From the IMG/VR virus record IMGVR_UViG_3300027782_000047, positions 44,668 through 108,667 of that record: a stretch of 64,000 bases of DNA; one strand, given 5' to 3'. The translations under genes were made by a program, and so were the position numbers. Shown piece by piece: positions 3,001 to 59,999 of this stretch (the stretch's first letter is position 1; each line of letters starts with the position of its first letter). The stretch is from a virus. The notes under the pieces were generated by a model. It was not told where the DNA came from. It was given only the letters and a program-made list of their open reading frames with translations, and made no database searches.

Positions 3001-5620
3001 TAAATGGTATAAAACTTTAAGAGAAACAGATTATACTAAACAAACAACCATACATTTAGGCGGAAGAACTTTCGGTCAATATGCAGCCGTTAATGACAAC
3101 ACTTATTTGACTAAGGGCGCAGAACTAAATCAGAAACAAATTTCCACATCAACTTCACAAGTGGACGTTGGAACTTTTGTTACAGATTTGGCTATTCAAC
3201 CATACATGAAGTCAAAGCAAATTCTTTTTGCTACCGAAGGCATGAGACCTTCAACAGTAATGTATTCTTTCTTTGACGAAACTGATGTTAACAAATATAT
3301 TGTAGTGCCAAACAAAGTTACTTTGAATGCTAATACAACTTTGATTTCTGGCGAATCAGTTCTTACAGCAAACACTATTGCAGACTTGACCGCAAACTTA
3401 GTAAGTCTATTATCTGGTGGAAATTCTTTTGATGCTGGATTTGTTGTTGTAAGTGAGATTGGATCTGCTAATGTCTCTATTATTAATGAAACAGGTAAAC
3501 CTCTTTCAGGTAAATATGTTTATGGACTAGACAGCGGTAAATATTACACAGTAAGTTCCGTAAATGACCATCGTTCCGGTGTAACAAGAGGCGTTAGTGC
3601 TTCAACGATTACTCTTGCTTCCGATGCGCCAGCTTACAGCATAGTTGGAAACACGATTACTCTTATTCGTTCAACTTCATCGTTTGAAGGAGTGGGAGCA
3701 CAATTTACAGTAACATCGTATGATACTAGCACAAAGGTTGCTACCGTAAGTGGAGCAAGTGCATATGCTGGTGGAACATATGTCTATAGTTTTGGAACAA
3801 ATAGAACGAACACTTTGGGACAAGTTGGCGGTGCATTCTATATGCCAAAAGCAACGTTTCGTTCGGGTGAAAGAAACTTCCGCGTTACTGAATCTTTTAA
3901 TAATACATATGACGCAGATTCAATTTCGTTCTCAGATAAAACATACAACGCAACTGGTCTAACAGTAAGCAAAACAACTCTTGTTGATACTGTATTGAAT
4001 GTTGATGTTGATAGAAAAATTGTTGGCACACAAACTTCCGACAGATTGATTGGTTCTGTAGCATCTGGCCAAGAATTTTTATATGCGTGGTCTACTACCG
4101 ATCCACTTGCACAAACATTCTTTGTTGATCCTGTAGTATATCCACAAGGTTTGTTCTTAAGTAGTGTTGATTTATTCTTTAAAGCAAAAGATGATGGCAA
4201 TTTGCCAGTGACAATGCAAATTCGTCCAACGGTAAATGGATTCCCATCTTCTGATTACTGGTATCCAGAATCTGTTGTCACCAAGTATCCTTCTCAAATC
4301 AATGTTTCTGAAACGCCGAGTGTTGCTGATTCAAGCACATCTACTAATTTTGAATTTAGTTTCCCTGTCTATTTAAAGCCGGGTCTATACGCATTAATTG
4401 TTTTGGCTGATACTCAAGATTATATTGTTTGGGAAGCTGAAAAGGGTAGTTCAACTACCAACAATGAATATGTGGATAAACAACCATATATGGGAACTTT
4501 ATATAAATCACAAAATACCGCTGAATGGACTCCTTTTATTAATGAAGATTTGATGTTTAGGTTAAATCGTTGCGTTTTTACAACGAACACTAATGCAACA
4601 TATTACCTAAGAAATCAAGCACTACCTACTAGCACAAACTATGACAAAATAAGATTGATTACAAATTCAATTGTACCAGATGCAAAGGTTACATCGTTGA
4701 CGCATAGCATCGCAACGACTACGATTTCGGGCGCAAAAGAATCTTCATTTAGAACATTGTCTCCAGGACAAACATATGATTTTTCCGCTGATGATTTGTA
4801 TCAAGTTGGTTATCGCAGAAAGAAAATGTTCAATGCAAATGATTTTACATTGAAACTTGATATGACAACAACAAGTGATGCTGTGTCGCCAATCTTCTCA
4901 TTAGAATCTGCTTATGTTAACATGTGGGAAAACTATATTGACAATGCAGAAATTAATTCTGAAGACTTCACTATCACTGCTCCCGGCAGAGGATACAATA
5001 ACGCAAACTCAATTATTATCACAAGTTCATCTGGTACAGGAGCAAATGCAAACGTAACTGTTGATGGTAATGGTAATGTTATTGCAATTTATGTTACATC
5101 GCCAGGATCAGGCTATTTGGATGACTTTACTATTTCATATCCAGATACCGGCAATTCAACCACAGTTACATCTAATGCAGTTATTGAATTGAATAGTGAA
5201 TATGATTCTTCGGGTGGTCCATGTCTAGCACGGTACATCACTAAGCCAGTTAAGTTAGCTGATGGATATGATGCTGGTGATTTGCGTGTATTCCTTGGCG
5301 CAAACAAACCCGGATCTTCGGAAGTTTCTGTATTCTACAAAGTATTGTCCGACAGCGATGCAACACCATTTAAAGATAGACCATATCAAAAAATGGTTTG
5401 TATTAATCCTACTGTAACATCATCGCCCGATAATGAAACCTTCCGCGATTATGAGTTTCGCCCATCGGCTACAACAAATGCAATCACATACGCTGGAACA
5501 AATGGAGTAACATATAATTCATTTAAAACTTTTGCTATTAAAATTGTATTGACTTCTAGTGATCCAGCGATTGTTCCAAGTGTTAAAGACTTGCGTATCA
5601 TCGCAACTCCAGCCGAGTAA
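2..5620 (+). CDS. Giant virion structural protein, DUF4815/VrlC-like (baseplate/tail-associated); 5'-truncated
   Basis: Frame is open from base 2 (FYRIGYNTTT...SLLDPAQGAFNYQAPGA), so the TTG at 110 is not the true start. Motifs LARRTHDESGNYTV, PGKAYVSGYE, RRYTMSDI..LEYY, DPLAQTFFV and ARYITKPV..DLRIIA are typical of T4-like cyanophage/pelagiphage DUF4815 proteins. Confidence 0.8.
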   Translation, partial: FYRIGYNTTTINANPSYKIGIEFTETIVDEVDDTSLLDPAQGAFNYQAPGAERFAIQTSLSKRTLDSADISTFFEIVRLVNGIKTKEIEYPIYSEIEKTLARRTHDESGNYTVDPFVISLEEGDTANGKFSVVLDPGKAYVSGYEFETIAPTIISVDRARDVSNVSSFDLPTNYESSLVLANVRGTLDITSFPSLDIHSVPLTNISLSTTATYNSTKIGTIYANMIRYNDSTLSSNGNSHSHIVNTFGANTTPITGTLAASGSSATTIAIPAAFNAGLPLNAYANMYFQITNGAGASLSPILITSSNTVTLNLASSLNFIPGSNTFTIQSDIKNAESLVQNGGSYIQFGGNIDVDSKNPTTGFVSISEPARTSLVFETPYEAIKANTISNMDFQVRKLYQGTTVGSSGVFTVTASGTDTFSFSSGVDPLSNSQIQDNIICFVRSDSASNTQYGIQPNTVISLSQSGFAVTPISASQFSINLKATQTIKVDLLIKTKINNAEDGTNGVTKRKQLIPITGGTDLHSLIPYEMNTAGTQGTTVLYSASTSGEVTYFAGGAVFKSIGATNFDNGTVLTDLRTPGKAVSLQVPDVYEIIGIYDSKNTGSNVTSAMLTTATNDITSYYEFDNGQRKTHYDHATIKLKRGYSAPVGKVFVQYRYFKSLSGFAGLFDVDSYSKGSNISYDEISKFDNKEDKKLIPLRGAFDFRPYRAIGGTSLSGALNPEPLENITMNYDYYLPRIDQVVVKSSREIGVLKGQSAVVPVPPPVDKKDMLIYTLYIPAYTESVKDIRADFKNHRRYTMSDIQAFEDRIRGLEYYVALTTLEKDAASTKILDNNGLERSKYGILVDNFTSKDSQATFSDADYDNRNLIDAGRLYPASLMRTVALEANTSLSTGATKVVGTGTKKALMLSYTTSEFAKQPYATKSLAIADATFANFKGKTKLFPEFTGDVDTGSTARVTLNSTQGIDNAFNFINDAFKYVADNNKQWADDRNSPFAQIADSKWYKTLRETDYTKQTTIHLGGRTFGQYAAVNDNTYLTKGAELNQKQISTSTSQVDVGTFVTDLAIQPYMKSKQILFATEGMRPSTVMYSFFDETDVNKYIVVPNKVTLNANTTLISGESVLTANTIADLTANLVSLLSGGNSFDAGFVVVSEIGSANVSIINETGKPLSGKYVYGLDSGKYYTVSSVNDHRSGVTRGVSASTITLASDAPAYSIVGNTITLIRSTSSFEGVGAQFTVTSYDTSTKVATVSGASAYAGGTYVYSFGTNRTNTLGQVGGAFYMPKATFRSGERNFRVTESFNNTYDADSISFSDKTYNATGLTVSKTTLVDTVLNVDVDRKIVGTQTSDRLIGSVASGQEFLYAWSTTDPLAQTFFVDPVVYPQGLFLSSVDLFFKAKDDGNLPVTMQIRPTVNGFPSSDYWYPESVVTKYPSQINVSETPSVADSSTSTNFEFSFPVYLKPGLYALIVLADTQDYIVWEAEKGSSTTNNEYVDKQPYMGTLYKSQNTAEWTPFINEDLMFRLNRCVFTTNTNATYYLRNQALPTSTNYDKIRLITNSIVPDAKVTSLTHSIATTTISGAKESSFRTLSPGQTYDFSADDLYQVGYRRKKMFNANDFTLKLDMTTTSDAVSPIFSLESAYVNMWENYIDNAEINSEDFTITAPGRGYNNANSIIITSSSGTGANANVTVDGNGNVIAIYVTSPGSGYLDDFTISYPDTGNSTTVTSNAVIELNSEYDSSGGPCLARYITKPVKLADGYDAGDLRVFLGANKPGSSEVSVFYKVLSDSDATPFKDRPYQKMVCINPTVTSSPDNETFRDYEFRPSATTNAITYAGTNGVTYNSFKTFAIKIVLTSSDPAIVPSVKDLRIIATPAE

Positions 5621-22962: not shown

Positions 22963-23718
22963 ATGAAAATATGCAGAGTTATCTTCTCCACAAACAGACC
23001 AGAATTCTTAATTCCAACTTTAGAATCACATCAAAAGTATATTGACTTTGGCGATCATGAGGTCTATGGCATATTCATAGATGATTATCCAAAAGATAGA
23101 AATGATAAATTGATTATAGATTTGGCTAAAAGAAGTGGTTTCAATGAAGTTGTTTTACACGAAGTAAATGAAGGATTAACACCTACTTGGACTGAGTTGT
23201 GGAATTATCTAGCAACACAAGACTATGACTACATCTGGCACCATGAAGATGATGTAGTATTTGGTGAACCAATAAAAATACAATCTCTGATAGATTTCTT
23301 AGAAGAAAATAAAGAGTTTTGCCAAATCAATCTCAAAAGAAATCCATGGTATGATTTTGAGTTGAACAAACCAGCAATAACTTGGGAAGATAAATTCTTT
23401 AAAGAATACCGGTATGATGTTAGGGATGACTATTTCTGGACAATGGCATCATTATATCCAGCTTGGGTAACAAAAGAGCCAGTAAAAGAAGTTGAAGGTT
23501 GCAATTTGGCTGAGTATCCAGTAATGAAATACTTTAGAGAGCAACACAAAATGAAGATGGCCATTCTTAAAAATCAAGATGGAAGCAATCTTGTGGAACA
23601 CATTGGTGTATACTCTCAAGGCAAAAGAGTGCTTGAAGATGAGCCTGGATGGGAAAGATTTAAGTGGTTTGATCCTAATAAAAAATATGATTCCAAGACT
23701 GGTACTTTAATAGTATAA
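22963..23718 (+). CDS. GT-A fold (family 2-like) glycosyltransferase
   Basis: 'STNRPEFL..TLES', IDD, 'YIWHHEDD' metal motif, C-terminal 'VEHIG'. Confidence 0.7.
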   Translation: MKICRVIFSTNRPEFLIPTLESHQKYIDFGDHEVYGIFIDDYPKDRNDKLIIDLAKRSGFNEVVLHEVNEGLTPTWTELWNYLATQDYDYIWHHEDDVVFGEPIKIQSLIDFLEENKEFCQINLKRNPWYDFELNKPAITWEDKFFKEYRYDVRDDYFWTMASLYPAWVTKEPVKEVEGCNLAEYPVMKYFREQHKMKMAILKNQDGSNLVEHIGVYSQGKRVLEDEPGWERFKWFDPNKKYDSKTGTLIV

Positions 23719-57064: not shown

Positions 57065-57466
57065 ATGGTCGACTTATCAACCTTTGTTGAGGTGACGCTA
57101 AACGAACACGATGATTTTTTAAAAGTGAGAGAAACGCTAACCAGAATTGGTGTATCCTCACGCAAAGAACGGGTTCTATACCAGTCTTGCCACATCTTAC
57201 ACAAACGCGGACAGTATTATATTGTCCACTTTAAAGAATTATTCGCACTAGACGGAAAACCATCTAGCATCATAGATAACGATATTGAAAGGCGAAACGC
57301 AATAGCTAAACTCCTAGAAGAATGGGGTCTAGTTAAGATTGTTAATCCTGACATTATGGTAGACAAGATTGCTCCGATTCATCAAATTAAGATTATATCT
57401 TACAAAGAAAAAGATGAATGGGAACTAGTCAGCAAGTATAACATCGGAAAGAAATCTCAAGAATGA
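57065..57466 (+). CDS. regA: Translational repressor RegA
   Basis: 'DDFLKVRETLTRIG', 'LYQSCHILHK.G.YYIVHFKELF.LDG'. Confidence 0.97.
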   Translation: MVDLSTFVEVTLNEHDDFLKVRETLTRIGVSSRKERVLYQSCHILHKRGQYYIVHFKELFALDGKPSSIIDNDIERRNAIAKLLEEWGLVKIVNPDIMVDKIAPIHQIKIISYKEKDEWELVSKYNIGKKSQE

Positions 57467-57486
57467 TTGAGGCTTTTGCAAAGTTG

Positions 57487-57494
57487 TATAAATA
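57487..57494 (+). promoter_or_regulatory. T4 late promoter TATAAATA ahead of the structured leader
   Basis: Exact consensus in the regA-hsp20 intergenic region. Confidence 0.7.
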
Positions 57495-57499
57495 ATTGT

Positions 57500-57620
57500 T
57501 CCCACCTTAGGGCTGTTTGATGCTACGGTATAAGGCGTCCGTGTAATTACACCTCCGACACGATAGTTCGGACCAGTATAAGGTAAGCTGGAAGTTATGC
57601 CTTCGGGGTAACATTTTTTT
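57500..57620 (+). ncRNA. Candidate structured RNA / hsp20 leader
   Basis: Five short hairpins, two potential pseudoknots, terminal C(UUCG)G hairpin + T7; folded by eye only. Confidence 0.5.
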
Positions 57621-57644
57621 AACTTGCTTTTAAAGGAGAACTTT

Positions 57645-58091
57645 ATGACAACATTAAGATTCACACATCTATACCCTTCCGTTGTTGGCTTTGACCGACT
57701 ACTTGACACATTTGATACCATGCTAACGGAAAAACCTACCACTTTCCCTCCACACAACATTGTTAAAGTTGATGATAATAATTATCTTGTTGAACTTGCT
57801 GTTGCTGGATTCGCAGAAAGTGAAATCACTATTGAGGTGTTGAAAAATACTTTGACTATCAAAGGTGAAAAAAGCCTTGATGACACCAGAAACTATTTAC
57901 ATCGTGGTATTGGCACACGTTCGTTTAAGAAAACTGTAACGTTGGCTGATACTGTGCAAGTTGATGGTGCAAGTTTGGATAATGGTGTTCTTACAGTAAA
58001 ACTTATCAATATTGTACCAGTTGAAAAACAACCGGTTAAAATTGCTATCAATACAGTAAGTAAACCACAATTACTCCAAGAAAAAGTTTAA
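57645..58091 (+). CDS. Small heat-shock protein (Hsp20/IbpA-like)
   Basis: 'VGFDRL', 'FPPHNI', 'ELAVAGF', 'YLHRGI..RSF', 'L.NGVL'; AAGGAG SD before ATG 57645. Confidence 0.93.
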   Translation: MTTLRFTHLYPSVVGFDRLLDTFDTMLTEKPTTFPPHNIVKVDDNNYLVELAVAGFAESEITIEVLKNTLTIKGEKSLDDTRNYLHRGIGTRSFKKTVTLADTVQVDGASLDNGVLTVKLINIVPVEKQPVKIAINTVSKPQLLQEKV

Positions 58092-59925: not shown

Positions 59926-59999
59926 CGCGGGATAGTAAAACGGTATTACAGAGGACTCATAATCCTCAGTTCTTGGTTCGATTCCAGGTCCCGCAACCA
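59926..59999 (+). tRNA. tRNA-Met(CAT), initiator-like acceptor stem, encoded CCA
   Basis: CGCGGGA/TCCCGCA acceptor (C1xA72), D-stem GTAA/TTAC, anticodon arm GAGGA-CTCATAA-TCCTC, T-loop TTCGATT, ACCA end. Confidence 0.93.

Follow-up and report, generated by a model that had tools for sequence, protein, structure and literature searches.

Phages have few noncoding RNAs whose folds are both complex and conserved, and most of these are of unexplained function. In T4, the small stable RNAs encoded in the tRNA cluster have lacked a functional explanation for about 50 years, and two of them, rnaC and rnaD (species 1 and 2), located at the end of the cluster, are tRNA-sized RNAs that are not tRNAs and lie only 1 to 6 nt from their neighbors. 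The leader of the gene 32 mRNA in T2 and T4 contains a classical H-type pseudoknot, and the put RNAs of HK022 are cis-acting antitermination RNAs. In bacterial ROSE elements, a U(U/C)GCU motif paired imperfectly with the Shine-Dalgarno (SD) sequence is the defining feature, and stabilizing and folding roles of their hairpin I have been discussed (PMC3669281). On comparative sequence evidence, the gap between regA and hsp20 of an uncultured phage contains an RNA of about 95 bases that is real, conserved, and pseudoknotted, is followed by a unit of the ROSE type, and recurs in other genomic settings, including the tRNA arrays of other phages.

The window analyzed here, a stretch of 64,000 nt, comes from a 108.7-kb record of an uncultured virus, a freshwater (lake) phage, and contains T4-like genes for the clamp loader proteins gp44 and gp62 and for RegA, followed by one for Hsp20. 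The gene for the T4-type translational repressor RegA (57065 to 57466, plus strand; Pfam PF01818, E of 4.8e-47) and that for the small heat shock protein (57645 to 58091, plus strand; PF00011, E of 4.2e-17), whose ATG is at 57645, are separated by 178 nt (57467 to 57644). An earlier note, made from the letters of this DNA alone, had placed a compact pseudoknotted RNA in this gap, between a late promoter and a terminator, and all of the motifs and positions that it listed are present in the sequence. The element directly follows TATAAATA (57487 to 57494, plus strand), a T4-type late-promoter box like those found ahead of other genes in the window, in keeping with the earlier claim that the RNA lies downstream of such a box. 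The promoter activity of this putative box is deduced from its position ahead of an ORF: the start of an ORF comes shortly after each of the five plus-strand TATAAATA boxes in the window, at 150 nt for the hsp20 leader and at 13 to 202 nt, to the next listed ORF (60 amino acids or longer), for the other four. The motif is not significantly enriched in the window (6 found versus 5.4 expected), and it is thus the positions of the boxes alone, and not their count, that are suggestive of a promoter role. The four other plus-strand boxes, at 23714, 34182, 36735, and 39203, each have an AUG within about 40 nt, as judged by eye, and are probably late promoters. An xTAAATAx box also heads the hsp20 leader in relatives. 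The late transcript would be expected to start at around 57500, which would put the first hairpin of the element, P1, at its 5' end.

Two further features of the surroundings deserve mention. Positions 57463 to 57495 contain a 10-codon ORF (MIEAFAKLYK*) that overlaps the regA stop codon (ATGA) and is the C-terminal remnant of a 55- to 68-amino-acid ORF (ending in AAFVKVAK*) found between regA and the leader in most relatives; that gene has been deleted in the window phage, and its remaining end has the late-promoter box embedded in it. A tRNA-Met gene (CAT anticodon, 59926 to 59999, 60.5 bits) lies 2.3 kb downstream of the element.

The conserved part of the gap is a core of 95 nt (57501 to 57595), for which conservation sets in abruptly at P1 and ends at P5. 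Among 80 RegA-anchored loci from IMG/VR, the sequence corresponding to 57501 to 57640 is kept at 77 to 98% identity in 28, compared to an identity of only about 80% for RegA itself. Two scans by pattern gave at least 120 matches each in viral contigs, and a third gave at least 119 stretches in metagenomes; as all were tied to a pattern, these counts undersample divergent members and other contexts. Among the matches listed, there were 85 distinct homologues, from uncultured freshwater phages, scoring 51 to 121 bits with a covariance model (R1) built on the nested helices. The core is present as a single copy in its own virus record. The earlier proposal of a structured RNA outside Rfam agrees with our comparison of the core with Rfam 15, which gave no match at the gathering thresholds and none at E values of up to 10. 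There was also no blastn match to the core in 50,697 records or genomes of isolated phages, and among 185,579 prokaryotic species, each represented by one genome, there was no true match, as the 10 pattern hits were all due to chance (one of them, for example, lies inside a coding region that reads by eye like rpoB). No description of the 95-nt element was found in the literature.

Several other identities were considered for this region. A weak match to DUF2815-RNA inside regA (E of 0.2) is a chance match, and a tRNA or tmRNA can be set aside, with ARAGORN reporting only the tRNA-Met at 59926. A small protein encoded on either strand, such as the minus-strand ORFs of 35 and 111 amino acids, is rejected because the homologues carry indels of 1 to 2 nt together with compensatory changes in paired positions.

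Folding of the single sequence was no better than that of shuffled sequences, with z scores of -1.16 for the whole gap and -0.44 for the core (-1.04 in another run), and covariation supports a fold other than the one of minimum energy. Since this comparison with shuffles is uninformative, the case for structure rests on the comparison of homologues. In our alignment of the 85 homologues (A3), 95.5% of the cells are paired, compared to 22 to 46% after a shift of the partners by one to three columns, and changes on both sides are seen at 17 pairs. The five hairpins proposed in the earlier note, here called P1 to P5, all show compensatory changes in these homologues, which are fewer but consistent in P1 and P2. 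All parts of the predicted fold lie on the plus strand. P1 (57501 to 57512) has a CCC/GGG stem whose outer pair is CG in 58 sequences, UA in 9, and AU in 1, and its near-invariant loop reads ACCUUA in 71 of the 85. It is followed by an H-type pseudoknot (57513 to 57539) with covariation in both stems, the first of which (P2) pairs 57513 to 57516 with 57525 to 57528 and the second of which (PK1) pairs 57519 to 57524 with 57534 to 57539, leaving UU as loop 1 and UAUAA as loop 3; in some relatives, loop 3 contains an extra hairpin. The earlier pairing of GATGC (57519 to 57523) with GCGTC (57535 to 57539) is therefore borne out by covariation, and it extends to six pairs and forms the H-type knot together with P2. 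The informative variants of PK1 include GAUGU/AUAUC (L048 and L203), an intermediate, GAUGU/GCGUC (L211), and GGUGCC/GGCGUC (L205), and in L206, the pair 57524-57534 is U-A. Over the alignment, 57523-57535 occurs as CG, UG, and UA, 57524-57534 occurs as UG, UA, and CG, and 57521-57537 occurs as UG, CG, and UA, with 57520-57538 being mismatched in 25 of the 85, often as U.U.

The 3' half of the core consists of three hairpins. P3 (57541 to 57552) has a GUGU/ACAC stem and an AAUU loop; its inner pair is UA in 53 sequences, CG in 25, and AU in 6, and the pair below it is G.A in 20. P4 (57554 to 57572) has six pairs, all of which change on both sides and which are paired in 99% of cases, a bulged base at 57567 that is U in 82 of the 85 sequences, and a loop, ACGNNA, of which ACG and the final A are kept. 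P5 (57573 to 57591) has five pairs, four of them changing on both sides and 100% being paired, and a 9-nt loop, AUAARGUAA, which reads AUAAGGUAA in 49 sequences (47 as AUAAGGUAA and 2 aligned as AUAAGGUAAC) and AUAAAGUAA in 36. The junction base between P3 and P4, C57553, covaries perfectly with G57582 in the P5 loop, being CG in 49 and UA in 36 sequences and unpaired in none, which points to a tertiary Watson-Crick pair; the pair takes the U-A form in two or more separate backgrounds, one of them that of L227. In all, about 40 unpaired bases of the element are invariant.

The same base, G57582, decides against the kissing loop that the earlier note had drawn between ACCUUA in P1 and UAAGGU in P5. 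The central pair of that interaction, 57506-57582, is unpaired in 36 of the 85 homologues, without compensation: when G57582 changes to A, C57506 never changes, while 57553 goes from C to U each time. The other pairs of the proposed interaction are uninformative, with three never varying and two varying on one side only and staying paired. A conformational switch through the second TATAAGG (57529 to 57535) is likewise not upheld, since UAUAAGG is present in only 29 of the 85. The most conserved loop of the element, ACCUUA, is therefore left with no supported pairing partner. Two other candidate pairings failed in the alignment, namely, that of CCUUA in the P1 loop with UAAGG in the linker, where the linker varies (AUAGG, ACAGG, and AAAAU) and its two G's belong to PK1, and that of CGUGU (57540 to 57544) with ACACG (57558 to 57562), which would cross P4 and where 57544 changes uncompensated and P3 covaries. 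We also observed four divergent relatives with scores of 18 to 47 bits (L026:1905-1995, L028:2085-2170, L031:2133-2200, and L018:2101-2217), which retain CACCUUAGG, a loop reading ACGAUA, and a P5 loop with the pattern A-NNNN-GUAA and diverge in the intervening parts; L028 has a local pairing of CUUAG with CUAAG. These relatives may reveal the partner of the ACCUUA loop.

The 3' part of the gap is of a different nature. The earlier note could not match the region to ROSE by eye, but 57591 to 57650, searched alone, aligns end to end with all 69 positions of ROSE_3 (RF02523), although at 18.6 bits (E of 0.029, 68 nt) against an Rfam gathering threshold of 43, and a homologous copy in L076 scores 52.7 bits, above this threshold. 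Twelve other relatives have copies scoring 21.7 to 34.5 bits, all of full length. By sequence and predicted fold, this stretch is a putative RNA thermometer of the ROSE_3 type. As in ROSE_3 of Pseudomonas ibpA (PMC3669281), hairpin I has AUGCC and GGGU strands with one G bulged, the spacer that follows is rich in U, and ACU(U/C)GCU pairs imperfectly with AGGAG immediately ahead of the AUG of a small heat shock gene. Hairpin I (57594 to 57612, with bulged G57599 and a UUCG loop), which is followed by an A and seven U's up to 57620, occupies model positions 1 to 30, and in 48 relatives, four of its seven pairs show compensatory changes and all are paired (100%). In hairpin II (57623 to 57638), the anti-SD CUUGCU (57623 to 57628, with bulged G57626) faces the SD sequence AGGAG (57634 to 57638), and both ACUYGCU and AGGAG are invariant in the 48 relatives. 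The U(U/C)GCU/SD pairing in the 3'-proximal hairpin, hairpin I with a single-stranded spacer, and the location in the 5' untranslated region of a small heat shock gene are thus all found here. The window copy differs from bacterial ROSE in its low score, in being phage encoded and seemingly driven by a late promoter, and in being preceded by a 95-nt module that is absent from bacterial ROSE. In some relatives (L097, L106, L154, L192, and others), a protein of 72 to 75 amino acids (MLSAINQSID...) directly follows the ROSE unit in the place of hsp20, and the unit is therefore probably not strictly tied to hsp20.

This assignment changes the reading of the terminator proposed at 57594 to 57620. 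The hairpin and the U7 run are there as described, but because of the end-to-end alignment with ROSE_3 and the homologous copy above the threshold, the hairpin is ROSE hairpin I; it is bulged and weak (-6.6 kcal/mol), and a terminator scan makes no call. Two contigs from lake metatranscriptomes (X1, matching 57512 to 57865, and X2, matching 57517 to 58065) cross hairpin I into hsp20, although carryover of DNA is possible. As these are assembled contigs, they carry no information on RNA ends, and the contig starts near 57512 and the depth are uninterpretable since the depth is summed over strains and the contigs break at variable sites.

Comparison of the leaders indicates that the core is an optional module. 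In most relatives, the basal hsp20 leader consists of the xTAAATAx box, the ROSE unit, and hsp20, and the slot between box and ROSE holds zero, one, or several folded modules, which may be a 5' cap hairpin, other H-type pseudoknots, or the 95-nt element. In many relatives with the regA-hsp20 arrangement, there is nothing but promoter, ROSE, and hsp20, or the slot is taken by other pseudoknot modules. These other modules, seen in the hsp20 leaders of L012 (2090-2200), L048 (490-540), L086, and many others, comprise a 5' cap hairpin with the sequence AUCCC-N3-GGGAU and GGGAAC after it, as well as H-type pseudoknots whose loop 3 is A rich, such as CUAGG-C-GGCA-CCCUAG-UAAAUAAC-UGCC, and they are combined in varying orders with the 95-nt element. 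In L044-type genomes, the element begins 4 nt after the regA stop codon, with no promoter box, and in L115, L162, L113, L102/L252, and L256, it precedes genes other than hsp20, without ROSE; these genes include one for a 278-amino-acid protein and, named by eye, a carbamoyltransferase-like gene. For several of these non-hsp20 copies, the stretch from P5 to the next start codon lacks a terminator. Leaders of mRNAs account for about 98% of the copies among the matches listed, with the downstream gene always nearby and in the same orientation.

The remaining copies lie on the tRNA strand inside tRNA gene arrays, at six loci of other phage types (two of them, L265 and L284, near identical). The order is tRNA-Gly, element, and tRNA-Tyr in L227; Leu, Glu, Asp, Ser, Cys, Tyr, and element in L265 and L284; element, Asn, and Gln in L354; a tRNA, element, Asn, Gln, and Thr, and then a permuted tmRNA in L341; and Asp, element, and Asn in L361. 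The element follows the upstream tRNA by at most 2 to 3 nt and precedes the next one by at most 3 to 9 nt (L227, L341, L354, and L361); in L265 and L284, it is followed by about 240 nt of noncoding sequence instead of a tRNA. The phage of L284 encodes ClpP, rubrerythrin, an NAD-dependent ligase, and a sigma-like protein, and because of the ClpP, NAD-dependent ligase, and sigma-like genes, the phages with array copies are not of the regA/hsp20 type. All conserved loops are retained in the array copies, as is the U:A form of the tertiary pair, while the stems of these copies differ and covary. An extra hairpin in pseudoknot loop 3 is found in the L284-type copies (L265, L284, L341, and L354) but not in L227. 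Array copies are scarce, with about two phage groups represented. These loci also contain other RNA features. The permuted tmRNA of L341 (389-816; RF04321, 111.8 bits) is phage encoded and belongs to the same RNA gene array as the element, lying about 210 to 260 nt downstream of it, past the three tRNA genes. The roughly 240 nt between the element and a ClpP-like gene in L284 (1319-1560) are free of ORFs and have no Rfam match at gathering thresholds, and this stretch may be another RNA. The small phage contig of L227, with the element between tRNA-Gly and tRNA-Tyr, has a group I intron on the minus strand (3728-3952, 73.2 bits).

In their position on the tRNA strand within a phage tRNA array, the copies in L227, L265/L284, L341, L354, and L361 resemble T4 rnaC and rnaD, whereas the window copy differs from these in belonging to an mRNA leader and not to an array. 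The best score of rnaC and rnaD with the covariance model was 6.5 bits, showing no similarity to the element in sequence or in structure, and they are its nearest analogues by position without being homologous. The P2 and PK1 part resembles the gene 32 leader of T2 and T4 in being an H-type pseudoknot, here with stems of 4 and 6 bp, a loop 1 of 2 nt, and an A-rich loop 3 of 5 nt, and in lying near the 5' end of a T4-like phage mRNA, but it is only one part of a five-helix domain and has no sequence relation to the gene 32 pseudoknot.

We propose that the leader in the window is a composite of three parts, namely, a late-promoter box, a 95-nt module that would fold independently, and a two-hairpin thermometer of the ROSE_3 type. 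The module would consist of a 5' hairpin with the ACCUUA loop, the H-type pseudoknot, and P3 to P5, whose loops are invariant, with P5 being tied to the P3/P4 junction by the tertiary C:G pair. In the ROSE part, the U(U/C)GCU motif is predicted to mask the SD sequence of hsp20 and so control translation. The function of the module would be independent of hsp20 and of the ROSE hairpins, and the module most likely exists as a stable small RNA, either made as such or released by processing, whose approximately 40 invariant unpaired bases would act on a protein or RNA partner. In the window phage, late transcription would proceed from TATAAATA and either end at hairpin I and its U7 run, giving an RNA of about 120 nt, or continue into the hsp20 mRNA. 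The fold, the family, the modular presence or absence of the element, and the relationship to ROSE are established by comparison of sequences. We consider it an even call that the element is a self-contained module with an RNA role of its own, probably as a stable small RNA that is processed or terminated and is coexpressed late with the ROSE-controlled hsp20. A stable RNA is favored because the module is optional and portable and occurs in tRNA arrays and because a passive stabilizer would leave the invariant unpaired bases unexplained. Against this reading, the location of about 98% of the listed copies in mRNA leaders fits a cis role equally well, and release of a small RNA from several of the non-hsp20 copies would need processing since no terminator follows P5. 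The suggestion in the earlier note of an undescribed small RNA comes close to the reading that we prefer, and the part placing it outside the described families holds for the core, while its release as an RNA is what we infer.

A purely cis-acting role strikes us as rather unlikely, but it explains a good deal. The module could form a compact and nuclease-resistant 5' domain that counters the 5'-end-dependent decay by RNase E or RNase J, an insulator for the folding of the marginally stable ROSE hairpin, or both. A role in shielding and insulation has been proposed for upstream hairpins in classical ROSE elements, the late transcript would have P1 at its very 5' end, and the module is always upstream of, and co-oriented with, a gene. 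The RNA contigs bridge the element to hsp20, and the stringing together of several modules and a 5' cap hairpin in the same slot in relatives suggests additive roles. However, a passive shield has no need for some 40 invariant unpaired bases, all loops are retained inside tRNA arrays, where there is no mRNA 5' end to protect, and in the L044-type genomes, the element just past the regA stop codon has no promoter and hence is not 5' terminal. Processing of polycistronic precursors at the border of the element, by an undescribed self-cleaving ribozyme or a target of a host RNase that would define the 5' end of the hsp20 mRNA and the ends of the tRNAs, would fit all three contexts, i.e., intercistronic after regA, in a leader, and between tRNAs, as well as the unconstrained upstream sequence and the many invariant bases, which are typical of catalytic cores. 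We find this improbable, given that no ribozyme family in Rfam was matched even at an E value of 10 and that the serial hairpins with one H-type knot are unlike HDV, twister, pistol, hatchet, and hammerhead ribozymes.

The two remaining explanations turn on the hairpin downstream of the core. The element resembles HK022 put in being a folded RNA of 70 to 100 nt that lies just downstream of a phage promoter, with a terminator-like site after it, and a nascent RNA of this kind could act in cis on RNA polymerase by binding it and so take it past hairpin I and the U7 run or through long, untranslated tRNA arrays. The position just after the promoter, the copies in untranslated arrays, and the contigs that read through hairpin I are in line with such processive antitermination, but we regard it as very improbable: the fold differs from that of put, relatives without the module have hairpin I and the U run directly after the promoter and must thus be read through without the element, hairpin I is weak, and several copies have no terminator downstream. 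Even less credence can be given to the ligand- or temperature-sensing riboswitch or attenuator envisaged in the earlier note, in which two alternative partners of ACCUUA would control termination before hsp20. Loop conservation of the kind seen in aptamers and the hairpin with U7 that follows the core speak for it. On the other side, the alternative partner and the kissing pair fail in the alignment (present in only 29 and broken in 36 of the 85, respectively), and the hairpin belongs to the ROSE unit, which exists without the element. Dedication to hsp20 is also contradicted, as the core is absent from many hsp20 relatives that keep ROSE and is found before other genes without the hairpin and inside tRNA arrays. 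The comparative sequence data largely refute such a switch.

In conclusion, the element is widespread in lake phages and strongly constrained, and its newness lies with the 95-nt core, as the 3' third of the interval described in the earlier note, the ROSE unit, is of an already-known type. T4-like phages appear, as judged from the sequences, to have adopted the bacterial ROSE thermometer for a heat shock gene of their own and to have fused it to new RNA modules. More tentatively, and with slightly less than even confidence, the core may represent a new class of small stable phage RNA, an RNA "gene" that would travel between unrelated phages, be expressed from tRNA/tmRNA arrays or from the late hsp20 leader, and act in trans through its invariant loops on the translation or RNA decay machinery of the host or on a defense nuclease. 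The portability of the element between mRNA leaders and tRNA arrays makes a test of cis versus trans action straightforward.
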